The notes below the pieces were generated by a model. The model was not told the origin of the DNA. It did no database searches and worked only from the letters and a program-made list of their open reading frames with translations. Shown piece after piece: positions 2,938 through 11,366 of a stretch of 64,000 bases of DNA. The DNA comes from Macrostomum lignano (lineage: Eukaryota). The DNA lies in NCBI GenBank assembly GCA_002269645.1, contig NIVC01002099.1:1-64000 (forward strand). The letters run 5' to 3'. A program made the translations under genes and the position numbers. Position 1 is the first letter of the stretch; each line of letters starts with the position of its first letter.

Positions 2938-4782
2938 ATGACCACACCTGTCCGAGATTTACGTTCCGGACCAGTTTTTCAAAGCTCAAATATTAACAGA
3001 CCCCCTGAACAAAATTTAGAAACTTCTGACTGCCAAATAGGTGAACAGCTCCCACGAAATAGTTCACCAGTACCTAACCTGTTTATACCAAATAACGTTG
3101 AGTTTAATAACCCTCTCGCGGATCATTTTGAACACAACCGTGCACACTCACCAGCACCCAGCTCCATCCTAACAGACGCGGACGAAACAGTTCAACCAGC
3201 CCCAAACGATATTGCTGAAGAATCTACTCTAGATATGGCTGATCAGGACGGCGCTCCCCATGTTGATGCTGCAGCGACAAATGCTGTCCGTGAACTTACT
3301 GACGTTATGAACCGCAGTCTGCAATTGCAATCAAACCATCCCGTCTCAGCTACTGCTCTTGCTGAAATTCGTCAATCCCTGAAAGGAATCGACCAAATGC
3401 ATGACTTCCGCTCCTTCACTGAAGAGTTCGACTTGATCACACGCTCCTTTGGACTATCGGAGAACGCAAAGATTCGGCTCTTCCCGCGACTACTGAATGA
3501 CCTTCTTAAACTCGAATACAGTCGCCTCTCTGCCGCAGTCCAAGCCTCTTATCCAGCCACCATTGAGGCACTGTCTCAACGCCTTCGGGAAGTAACCATT
3601 GGCTCGGCTCTAACGCTGCATAATGCAACAACCCGGAAACAACAGTACGGCGAACCGTTCCTGTCTTATTTCACCGATATTCGTCGAAAGCTCAGGTCAG
3701 CTATGCCGGAAATACCGGAAGAATTTCCGGAAGGTGCCGGTCCGGAAACACCACCCGCGAACCAAGCTGTCATCGACCAGCGCAACCGAGACTTCCTTGC
3801 TACCCTGATGGCTACGACTATCAACAATGCTCTACCCTACATCAAACGAGAACTCTTGAAGCAAAATATCACCACGGAAAGTACGCTAATCAACAAGGCC
3901 ATCCGCGCCGAACAAATCCGCGACTCCACCATGGACTCTGATGGCACTGACTTGAAAGCTCTCACAGAGCGTCTAACTACCTTAGAAAAAACGACGAAGG
4001 AAGCCAATCAGCAGGTGGTTGCCTCCCTGCAAACACAAACCAAGCCACCTATCGCTAATATGCAACAGAAGCCCACTTGTTATCATTGCGGTCGACCTGG
4101 ACACTATGCCGCCGACTGTCGTCGAAGGAATGACCAACAACCTCGTCCCTTCCGACCTAACTCAAGTGATCGAAGGAACACAGCCCAATACGGCTCTGAT
4201 GCCCCGCGAAATCGTTACCAGCAGGGACCGCCACGATTGACCTGTAACTATTGCCGAAAACCAGGACACTCTATTAACCAGTGCCGACTACGAGCCCAAC
4301 GTACACAAGGCTACGGTCCACCGGCGACACAACAATCACGATTTCCACCCCGTCAAGACTATGGAAACCGGCCTCAGCAACGCTATCCGCCTCGATACAA
4401 CGGCACCAACAATCAACGACAACCTCCGAGATTTGCGCAACAACAATATCCACCGATACGCGCCATCACTGCTCAGGACCCTGAAACGTCCCACCCAGGA
4501 TGGAATCAACAGCCGCAGATTGGATGGACGACTCACGACGCTCCCGAGTCTGCCCAACTGATGCACATTGCTACAGTTGATGAACGCCCACCGACTTTTG
4601 GAAACGAAATTCGCTACTCTGGAGACGCTAAGCAGCTGAAATCTTTACTCAAAAAACCGACTACTGCCGCTGCGACTATCAACTCTATTCGCCTTTGTAC
4701 GGTTGAAAGAGTGACAAACGCCTACACTCCACCGACCAGCAACAACAACCGCGAGAAAACCGTGAAAGCTTCCGTCGGAATT
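2938..4782 (+). CDS. gag: Gag region of polyprotein (capsid + nucleocapsid)
   Basis: First ATG at 2938 (MTTPVRDLRSG); capsid-like QQYGEPFLSYFTDIRRKL; CCHC knuckles CYHCGRPGHYAADC (4078-4119) and CNYCRKPGHSINQC (4243-4284). Confidence 0.9.
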
Positions 4783-7547
4783 CGCCGATCACTACTGACA
4801 CTTTTTCTCCTGTGCCTAGCAACTTCACTCTTCGCACTAGCCAACGCTACGCCGATAACGACGTCAACTCCACCATCGATTGAGAGACAATCTCACGAGG
4901 GCTTCATTGACACACCAATGGTCTGTCCGTACAACCAGATCCCACGAATTTTCACGATACCACATGAGATCCGTTGTGAACAGCTCAAACACCAAACGAC
5001 GCCGACACTCCCGTTGAAACTGGAACTTTACACAACGAACGTGGAAACCAGTTCTCTGGTTATGACTGTCTGTTTCCGCGAGAAAATCACTATCAGATGT
5101 GATAAGGCGGTGATAAGAACCTGGACATCCGCCCTGGTAGAGTTGGAACCGCAACCAGTCACTCAAGCTGATTGTGAAAACTGGGCACGAACAAAGCTAT
5201 CGCCTGATGGATCATTAGTGTTAAAGACTGCGTCAACTCAGTCTATCCAACGCCTGCAATCGACATTCAACACGCAAAATGCTGTGCGTTGCACTCCTGG
5301 TTCACATTCAGAACAAATAGTAACAACAGTGATCACCGGAATCCCAGCCTACTCAACAGCAGATCAAAAAATGGAATCTTTGTCCTTCCCAATGGACAAC
5401 TGCAAACTCGCCGACAAATTTTGTACAATTAAAACAACTGCACAAGAAATGCGAGCTTTCAACCTACCTTTGCCGATACTAACATCCCCCTGGGATCCTT
5501 TGGAAACTGAAGCAATCTACCAAATTGACGTGAAAGGACCAAGACATCTAAATCTTATTTGGACACCTCCACCACTCGCTGATTGTCCTTTAAAACCATT
5601 TCGTACTCTTGAAGGCAACTTAAACTCCGGCTTGTTCTTAACTAATGATCAAACATTGGGACTAACCTTCAACCCAGTGCCGTCGACTCACACTCTCACC
5701 TGCACTGGCGTCCGTAAGACGTTGTACCTTTCAACGCAAGGTCTATACGTAGACATCCTCGACAACAAAGAAGCAGAATTTCTCGCCACCTTACGAAGCC
5801 CATTAGAAGAAGCTACTCCAAAACCTCAAACTAGCGAAGAAACCACTTCTTCGAGACAAAAACGTCGTTCACCACCAGCGATACTACCAACGCCACCAAC
5901 AATATTACCCGTTCAGCAATCGACGACTCAACATCCTTTCACTACGACAACTCAGTCACGACAATTCCTACCGCCGCAACCTTTACGACAAGAGCGACCT
6001 GATCATCCACCGACGTCAAGCACTTCTACAACAATGACGCCAACAACTACGATACTAACTACTACAAAATCAACACCAACAACTACAATTTTGACAACGA
6101 CAACACCACCGACTACAACGACAACACCACCGACTACAACGACAACACCACCAGCTACGACGACAATGCCACCGACTACAACGACAACAATACCTACCAC
6201 AACCGTAACACCGACAACTTCAACAACCACCACTGCTACAACCTCAGCAGCAACAACGACAGCAGATTCAACTACGACGACTACAAAAGTGACGACACAA
6301 CCTCGTACCACCACCTTACCGCCAACAACCTCAACCTCTAGCAGCACAACCAGTGCACCAGCAAAGTCTGCAACCTCAACCCTCACCACGAACTCACCAG
6401 CGACAACAACCAATCCACAACTGGCTTCTATTCACACGAATCTAGCAGTTCCACATCACGAACCACAAGGCAGTCAACCGGATCTCCTACTACTACCACG
6501 CAACAAGCGAAGCACAGACGACAAAACCATCGCAGCCCCTTCAGGCAACTCTACTGCGCAACTTTCATCAACGTTCGCATCCGCTGAACTTCTTGCTGGA
6601 CAACTACAAGGAGCTGCTAGTAAAGCTCGAAAAGACCTTCTCCAAGTACAGAAACAGCTTGCAACTACTCAATGCATGATGTATGCAACTAATCTCAAGT
6701 ACAACCGACAGTTATACTACACACAACCAACGCTCGCTGCTCGACTCTTATTAAATGATCCTTTCTGCGAGCTAGATCCATTGCTGGATACCTCTTCGTC
6801 TACCAGTGCAAACCTCTACACCAGTTCCGCTTTGTCCAACCAAAGTACAAGACGAACCAATGCTTCACGCGTCCCCCACTGGAATTCCGTCTACAAAATT
6901 ATACTGTTCTTGGATTTTTGGACACAACGACTCGTATTGTCTCCACAGCTACTCCAGCTCTAATCTCATGCGACGCCTTCCCATACTACTACCTGCCTAA
7001 ACAATCGATGCTATTCAAGACCACACTAAATTTTTCGAGATTTGAACCCACAACCGCTAATGTCAGATCCGATGAAAACTATCGGTTGTCCGATTTGCAA
7101 ACTTCAGTCTCCGAAAGCATCTTCAAACCTATGGGAGATATCAATTATACTTCACTTCGTAGTCCGATAACGGTGACCGACCTAATGCACCAGTTCATGC
7201 AAACTCGTGATTTTCTGATTACGGTTTTCAAACTTCCGAATCGAACACGACATAGAACAGCACATGCTGACAGTGCATTCCTGGACTCAAAACTAGCTCT
7301 TCTCAATCTATGGTCTTCGTCGATATTCAACTGGGATCGACTAGTCGCAAACTATCAAGAAAAGTTCGTCTTAACAGCAGCTGTAATCGTCTACATTGCC
7401 GTTATTATCTTCGTGTGCAATCTTGGCCGACTCTGCGTCGCCAGCACCATCCGTACGGCAGAACGCACACTATACAAGTGCTGCGGCAACAACGAACTCC
7501 AACTCGAGTGGAATCACGAAACGACTACTCCCAACAACAGCAACTGA
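4783..7547 (+). CDS. env: Envelope glycoprotein, class III fusogen-like (gB/G), in frame with Gag; 1-nt frameshift at ~6764
   Basis: Signal peptide RRSLLTLFLLCLATSLFALANA|TP (4783-4848); Cys-rich ectodomain; furin sites RQKR (5854) and RNKR (6499); restoring one T at ~6764 gives NDPFLRARSIAGYLFVYQC...CFTRPPLEF; TM FVLTAAVIVYIAVIIFV (7365-7415). Confidence 0.85.
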
Positions 7548-10500: not shown

Positions 10501-11366
10501 CTCTTCAACCGTGTGTTCGCTTCGCAGGACTACCAGCACACATCATCTCAGATAACGGACCCCAATTCATCTCGCAAGAATTTCGAGAGTTTATGGGTGC
10601 CCTTGGAATCCATCTAATCTACACCTCGGTGTACCAACCATCCAGCAACTTCGTCGAACGCGCACACAAGACACTGAAGCAAACTCTTACGGCCTTTGTC
10701 CATGACAAACCAGATCTCTGGATTGACTTCCTACCCGCGGTGACACTAGCAATCAATACCGCCGCACACTCAACGATGAATGAATCACCATTCTACTTGT
10801 TCTTCGCTCGAGACTTCCTGCCACCCAACGCACGGATCATGGAACACCAGACAACTGCATACATGGACGTTATTAAACCAGTCAATTTGACCTGTTCAGC
10901 TATTTTGCTTGCCAGAGAAGTCGCCAAGGAACTTCTGCACAACTCAGCTGAACAGCGCGCTGAAAACTCTGATAAGAAGACCAACAGCCGCTACATACGC
11001 CCGGGTGCACGATGCTATTTGGATGTCTCAGCAACGAAGGAGACAAAATTCTCCAATCCTTATCGTGGCCCAATGCGTCTACTAGCATGGCTCTCCGATC
11101 AGAACGCACTGATTTCTGATGTCAACCGGCCAAGCGAACGACCAATCGTGGTACATGCCTCCAAGCTCAAACCATGGCCTGGAGATGGACTCAGCGCTGG
11201 ACCTAGTCACCTACCTGAGTTCACAACTGATGACATTCAGGTCCACCACAACCATCGGCCGCCATTGAGCAAGTCCATCGCGCTGCAAACCACGTCCACT
11301 GATGAGCCACCAGGTCAGCCACAGACGCACGGCTACAACCTAAGATCGAAGAACAAGAAGTCGTGA
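7548..11366 (+). CDS. pol: Pol: aspartic protease, reverse transcriptase, RNase H, integrase; 1-nt frameshifts at ~10155 and ~10520
   Basis: LIDSGAS (D 7769), RLVTDYRKLN, LPQGLKSSP, YLDD (9083), TDASD, TDHQPL, VADCLSR; after frame repair HSTALGGHLG...CEIC, IDLVGP (10363), SDNGPQF (10551), VER (10656), GPY/F-like PYRGPM...VHASKLK, C-terminal YNLRS. Confidence 0.95.

Follow-up and report, generated by a model that had tools for sequence, protein, structure and literature searches.

The analysed window, 64,000 nt of contig NIVC01002099.1 of Macrostomum lignano (assembly GCA_002269645.1, positions 1 to 64,000 of the forward strand), carries a Ty3/gypsy-type long terminal repeat (LTR) element. Its coding region lies at 2938–11366 and encodes, in this order, Gag, a signal-like segment, Env, a transmembrane segment, protease (PR), reverse transcriptase (RT), RNase H (RH), and integrase (IN). 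All features of the element are on the forward strand. The element is larger than the region outlined in the original prediction; within the window it occupies positions 1–14743, with additional open reading frames (ORFs) both upstream and downstream. The coding region probably specifies one membrane-threaded polyprotein with a predicted fusogen of the glycoprotein B (gB) type, and enveloped budding of its particles is likely.

Gag (2938–4779) has a helical core at about 3238–4070, zinc knuckles at 4078 and 4243, and a spacer rich in Gln, Arg, and Pro. Two zf-CCHC domains were recognized in a Pfam search (zf-CCHC, E 9.8e-08). The core is conserved in sister families; relatives gave weak Gag-type Pfam matches only, and no meaningful match to the core was found among PDB sequences. 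Pol (7748–11366) has the protease motif DSGA at 7769, the RT motif YLDD at 9083, RNase H at about 9509–9832, and an integrase. Its Pfam matches (aspartyl protease, RVT_1, RNase H, integrase H2C2, and rve) give the order PR-RT-RH-IN, as expected of Ty3/gypsy elements (Metaviridae). Ty3 RT is the best solved relative of the RT-RH part (E 4.3e-71), with the next other family at E 1.7e-44. A database protein named Macrostomum lignano covers 35% of the Pol query with 100% identity.

The interval between the zinc knuckles and the protease is about 1,100 codons long and contains a signal-like segment, ten cysteines, two furin-like sites flanking a Thr-rich tract and, further on, a second Cys-bearing region and a transmembrane segment. 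The predicted internal signal sequence (4780–4848) has a basic flank, a hydrophobic core, and an A-X-A end; an equivalent hydrophobic segment lies 5' of Env in 8/8 host-family chains. The N-terminal half of Env (4849–5853) is predicted to form gB domains I–II with the fusion-loop region, and its ratio of nonsynonymous to synonymous substitution rates (dN/dS) is 0.08–0.09. It is followed at 5854–6510 by a furin-like site RQKRR (5854), a mucin-like insert of variable length rich in Thr, Pro, and Ser, and a second furin-like site RNKR (6499); this part has dN/dS of 0.29 and is disordered in the structural model. The C-terminal half (6511–7367; dN/dS 0.11), with the predicted gB central helix and crown, holds the first of four frame breaks. 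A predicted transmembrane anchor (7368–7424) is followed by basic residues, and the predicted cytosolic tail or linker (7425–7747) contains PSAP at 7571–7582 and the second break. Env has pairwise dN/dS of 0.08–0.11, comparable to that of Gag (0.05) and PR (0.06).

A profile of 14 natural Envs matched Epstein-Barr virus (EBV) gB with E 1.7e-12, the cut-off of PF24664 was passed by three of the seven Env proteins tested, and in the Atlas comparison the C-terminal half was assigned to PF24664 clusters (0.93). The ectodomain of a sister copy was modelled in AlphaFold2 with an alignment of 117 rows. The best PDB matches of the model were all herpesvirus gB, with herpes simplex virus (HSV) gB on top (E 3.6e-14), and its best named viral match was a nyavirus glycoprotein (E 1.4e-18). 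The Env of the window element is predicted, from profile and model, to be of the gB/class III type, and the original view that it is a genuine envelope gene is borne out by the PF24664, EBV gB, and fold matches. The gB-type ectodomain lies between the signal-like segment and the transmembrane segment, as in GAG-ENV-POL errantiviruses with HSV/gB-type Env. Such an Env could be folded and selected and still act only inside the cell, in anchoring or trafficking of particles, with no cell-to-cell entry. Of the two predicted loop tips, just one looks hydrophobic, judged from model and sequence, which would fit this; yet an intracellular role is quite improbable, as the class III ectodomain is retained whole, with cysteines and a furin-like site, at dN/dS of about 0.1, and motifs resembling late domains are present in the tail.

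Twenty-two loci of the coding region were retrieved, and 21 copies were compared after exclusion of the rearranged L021; the partial C1861 match is not in this set. Env stands between Gag and PR in 21/21 of these copies, as had been proposed for the window. The position of the window at a contig edge and the many indels of the assembly could point to a copy-specific insertion of Env or an assembly chimera. This explanation has next to no chance and is refuted by the 21/21 copies, by independent short-read contigs that bridge both the Gag-Env and the transmembrane-tail junctions, and by the same Gag-Env-Pol order in related families and nematode proteins.

The coding region of the window copy consists of five overlapping stop-free pieces (2869–6963, 6759–7547, 7271–10186, 10141–10617, and 10473–11366) in frames 1, 3, 2, 1, and 3. 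The steps between them are four -1 breaks, in agreement with the single-base breaks and lack of stops described originally, and the overlaps in which breaks 1 to 4 lie are 6759–6963, 7271–7547, 10141–10186, and 10473–10617. Breaks 1 to 4 are open in 19/21, 15/20, 12/17, and 15/17 copies, respectively, the Gag-Env junction is open in 15/21 and the stretch from the transmembrane segment to PR in 12/20, and sister copies carry breaks at other places. Short-read contigs, compared with the window over 2800–11380, have an indel at the four breaks in 4/4, 4/4, 4/4, and 3/4 runs, the fourth run being without cover at the last break. Since most sisters read through these positions and the short-read contigs differ at each of them, the breaks are likely long-read assembly errors or private lesions. 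That all four shift by -1 would suit programmed frameshifts that set the levels of Gag, Env, and Pol; this reading is very improbable and is largely refuted by the sister copies, most of them open at each break and others broken elsewhere, and by the same contigs.

One sister copy has a natural frame of 2086 aa from Gag through PR. A full natural Gag-Env-PR-RT-RH-IN frame of 2458–2866 aa was found in 10/20 loci of related families, which were obtained by protein searches of the genome and picked for long frames and diversity. The families with the full frame span four lineages with RT identity to the window of about 80, 44, 43, and 32%. A single reading frame is thus likely the family state, with Gag running in frame into the signal-like segment, ectodomain, transmembrane segment, and PR-RT-RH-IN, as first proposed, and likely giving one long polyprotein.

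The single frame might instead be a form of the genomic copy only, with Gag and Pol made mostly from spliced or truncated messages, the full polyprotein a minor product, and Pol packaging uncoupled from Env. Capsids of Ty3/gypsy elements and retroviruses usually require more Gag than Pol, which favours such messages, as does the nature of the short-read evidence, which consists of assembled contigs, and these drop rare forms. We consider this unlikely. No clean joint that removes Env was found in four runs, and the only joint, found in one run, has non-canonical ends and deletes a part of Env, PR, and the greater part of RT. The spacing from signal through transmembrane segment and tail to PR, conserved in four RT lineages, also speaks against it.

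The favoured reading remains a threaded polyprotein. In 8/8 host-family chains, hydropathy and charge assign a cytosolic position to Gag and Pol and a lumenal one to Env. The likeness to alphavirus and flavivirus topology drawn in the original prediction holds for the threading, as far as hydropathy and charge can tell, and does not extend to Env, which is class III and not class II. The structural polyproteins of rubella virus, alphaviruses, and flaviviruses similarly have a single chain in which capsid and an internal signal sequence precede the envelope protein; unlike in these viruses with class II proteins, the replicative enzymes here come after the envelope tail.

A putative course of membrane threading, cleavage, and budding can be read from the sequence. 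Gag would be made in the cytosol, and the internal signal sequence would then direct Env into the endoplasmic reticulum, where signal peptidase would cut after the signal; the remnant of the signal would tether Gag to the membrane. This tether is proposed beside the lack of Gly2 after the first Met in 7/7 chains checked. The transmembrane segment would halt transfer, so that the tail, PR, RT, RH, and IN would remain cytosolic and be carried on Env; packaging of Pol would therefore be coupled to the envelope. Furin would cut at either end of the mucin-like insert, and the insert would shield the fusogen or be released. The PSAP of the tail would recruit ESCRT-I (TSG101) for budding, clustering would dimerise PR for maturation of Gag and Pol, and the particles would finally enter neighbouring cells, the germ line included.

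The mucin-like insert is 210–255 aa long with about 42% Thr, and its length between RQKRR and RNKR differs among copies. It is present also in the nearest sister families, where the first furin-like site is weaker, and absent from other lineages. The motif P[ST]AP was found in 6/8 Env tails of host families, which fall into three groups only 14–26% alike; 0.6–8% per tail was expected from shuffles, and the motif occurs once in 15,949 aa elsewhere. PSAP in the Env tail is likely a budding (late-domain) signal.

Several points weigh against the threaded, gB-type reading. The window family's own Env had no match to any family in Pfam, the N-terminal half reached only the level of a lead in the Atlas comparison (0.82), and a word-based homolog search of longer proteins with this half found none. 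The TM-scores of the AlphaFold2 model against gB are low (0.29–0.41), the model itself having a mean pLDDT (predicted local distance difference test) of 68 and a predicted TM-score (pTM) of 0.55. A frame open from Gag to IN is present in the assembly in 0/21 copies of the window element's family. The test of P[ST]AP was post hoc, as the motif was seen first, and the six chains represent three related groups; two metagenome relatives (one of which has PPxY) and most non-host chains are without the motif. The roles of signal peptide, transmembrane segment, furin sites, and late domain are putative and motif-based. Finally, the 1:1:1 ratio of Gag:Env:Pol is unusual and unexplained.

Three accessory ORFs flank the coding region. 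The one upstream of gag (1094–1900) codes for 269 aa in sisters, is broken in the window copy, and is restricted to the long subtype of the element; its dN/dS is 0.21–0.32 versus three diverged copies, and 0.58 and 0.9 versus two near-identical copies. ORF 3a (11666–12620) codes for 318 aa in sisters, is in three pieces in the window copy, and has dN/dS of 0.17–0.33 in 8/8 comparisons. The low-complexity ORF 3b (13063–13512) codes for 149 aa in the window and 114–147 aa in sisters, with dN/dS of 0.19, 0.30, and 0.53 where measurable. Judged by these ratios, the three accessory ORFs are under purifying selection. They have no Pfam match and no homolog in the flanks of ten sister-family loci, and for ORF 3a none was found in the protein database or in metagenome contigs.

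When the C-terminal half of ORF 3a was compared with one host SENP exon, the score was reached by 4/5000 shuffles, and the catalytic His is absent; other frames from ULP-bearing loci (n = 11) scored at chance in the same test. ORF 3a was not among the PF02902 matches in the genome search, the hhalign probability was 2.5%, and the single-sequence model (pLDDT 40) had no Foldseek match and no support from PDB. A SENP/ULP-like domain without catalytic His is a weak lead for this product. A wider reading would make the element a complex enveloped retroelement, in which the threaded chain is combined with an ESCRT late domain on the Env tail, a fast-changing mucin shield excised by furin, and accessory genes, one of them with a dead SUMO-protease fold that would counter host silencing. 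This combination is doubtful. What is at stake is whether gypsy elements that carry env form infectious particles outside Drosophila as well, and in what way a chain of the Gag-Env-Pol type is threaded, cut, and packaged. One genome houses several young families of this layout, and the shared tail motif, mucin-like insert, and selected accessory ORFs give concrete predictions for native RNA and protein data.

The original prediction knew of no gypsy element with the Gag-Env-Pol layout, and here the literature decided otherwise. Errantiviruses of Nematoda, Bryozoa, and Platyhelminthes carrying an ENV of the HSV/gB type in the order GAG-ENV-POL, which are not monophyletic, are already published (Chary and Hayashi, eLife 2026, PMC13524379), and the flipped order in nematodes is credited there to Sacco et al. 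2022. These 'ancient errantiviruses' share with the window element a Ty3/gypsy Pol, a gB-type Env between gag and pol, several young copies, and an ectodomain flanked by signal and transmembrane segments. The window element differs in its length of 14.3–16.7 kb, three accessory ORFs, and the mucin-like insert. In the main text of PMC13524379, figures outside the search, there are no matches for 'polyprotein', 'single ORF', 'mucin', 'late domain', or 'ESCRT', and the extras of the wider reading are likewise absent from that text. Literature searches that left the text of Sacco et al. 2022 outside found no paper on the insert, tail motif, or accessory ORFs.

The sole entry for Macrostomum lignano in Supplementary file 1 of PMC13524379, Platyhelminthes_Rhabditophora_Mlig_errantivirus_2, is likely from the same host species and shares the ENV_HSV type; unlike the window element, it has an LTR of 863 bp (versus 653–657 bp), a length of about 10.6 kb, and another primer-binding site (PBS). 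Its listed PBS motif is absent from the window family and was found on distant families whose RT is about 43% identical to that of the window. Because of the different LTR and this placement of the PBS, the window family is not Mlig_errantivirus_2. A catalogue of 137 LTR families of Macrostomum lignano does not discuss Env in its available text (PMC12801592), and two short motifs were not matched in its supplements, where long cells are cut. As far as these sources extend, the Gag-Env-Pol order is real and already known, the window family is new, and some of its extras are undescribed in the main text of PMC13524379.

The 3' LTR of the window element (14087–14743) is 657 bp long, has TG...CA ends and TATAAA at 14245, and matches the 5' LTRs of six sister flanks; it was delimited by means of the flanks of sister copies. 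The coding region ends upstream of it, and a purine-rich tract resembling a polypurine tract lies directly 5' of it (14071–14086). The window carries the 3' LTR only. Comparison with sister copies puts the 5' LTR about 1.3 kb past the contig edge, and a gapless repeat search in window 1–20000 found no LTR pair. A PBS-like motif starting with TGG is present 3' of the LTR in 7/7 flanks. It may be that of tRNA-Glu; one pattern search did not find a matching host tRNA. LTR length in the family ranges between 653 and 657 bp.

With 1.1 kb of the Env-like region as query, at least 26 matches of 92–100% were found in the genome, and sister copies more than 98% identical are present in multiple numbers, as in the GAG-ENV-POL HSV/gB-type errantiviruses. 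The family has two subtypes with common LTR and coding region and different leaders, a long one of about 16.7 kb (L025, L032, and L034) and a short one of about 14.3 kb without window 1–2184 (L027, L029, L030, and L040). Four LTR pairs were compared. Those of two sister insertions, 653 bp long, show 100% identity and are accompanied by 4-bp target-site duplications; the other two, which belong to a tandem pair, show 99.8% and 95.6%. The family is young and recently spreading. Elements in tandem were seen in L015, L030, and L011, head to tail, 14.3 kb apart, and with one LTR in common. In both L010 and L013, about 270 bp of the Env N-terminal half (window 5596–5863) are duplicated in direct orientation, and L021 and L038 represent a rearranged copy with inverted pieces. 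In P0156, a database gene model fuses protease and integrase parts of the element to laminin domains and likely reflects a wrong gene prediction across an insertion.

The Env profile matched 442 library proteins. Among the best 150 of these, a single chain unites a Gag marker, Env, and a Pol marker in 10 cases, of which one is the sister family of the host; in 94, Env alone is seen, and in 0/150 does Env follow RT or IN. Two of the 10 Gag-Env-Pol chains, when looked up, are named nematode proteins. A tree of RT-RH was computed with 19 rows and midpoint root, without outgroup, and the plant outgroup P0157 was dropped because its match range was too long. The window groups with the 80% sisters and two metagenome proteins (100/100), and nematode-labelled chains form a separate, well supported clade. 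The nematode element NERV, which Sacco and colleagues presented in the Journal of General Virology in 2022, reportedly has a continuous gag-env-pro-pol frame, an Env like Nyamiviridae glycoproteins, and extra ORFs. The nyavirus fold match of the window family resembles this; the host here is not a nematode, and the nematode-labelled chains stand apart in RT. L046–L048 have the most distant RT (32%), and yet their Env C-terminal half is 33–37% identical, versus 25–28% in lineages with 43–44% RT; exchange or rate differences may account for the mismatch. Close Gag-Env and Env-Pol relatives, P0005 and P0155, are filed in a bacterial metagenome bin, and more probably they come from an animal contig.

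In the stretch 14744–15421, a 50-bp tandem array adjoins the 3' LTR and has its end within the last exon of a same-strand protein kinase gene. The element likely sits in an intron of this gene, which may be DSTYK-like. The host region holds a local duplication (15053–22960 and 29263–40631), in which blocks recur about 14–18 kb downstream with 85–91% identity. A 25-bp satellite of about 187 copies occupies 56531–61117, and many other tandem arrays are present in the window.

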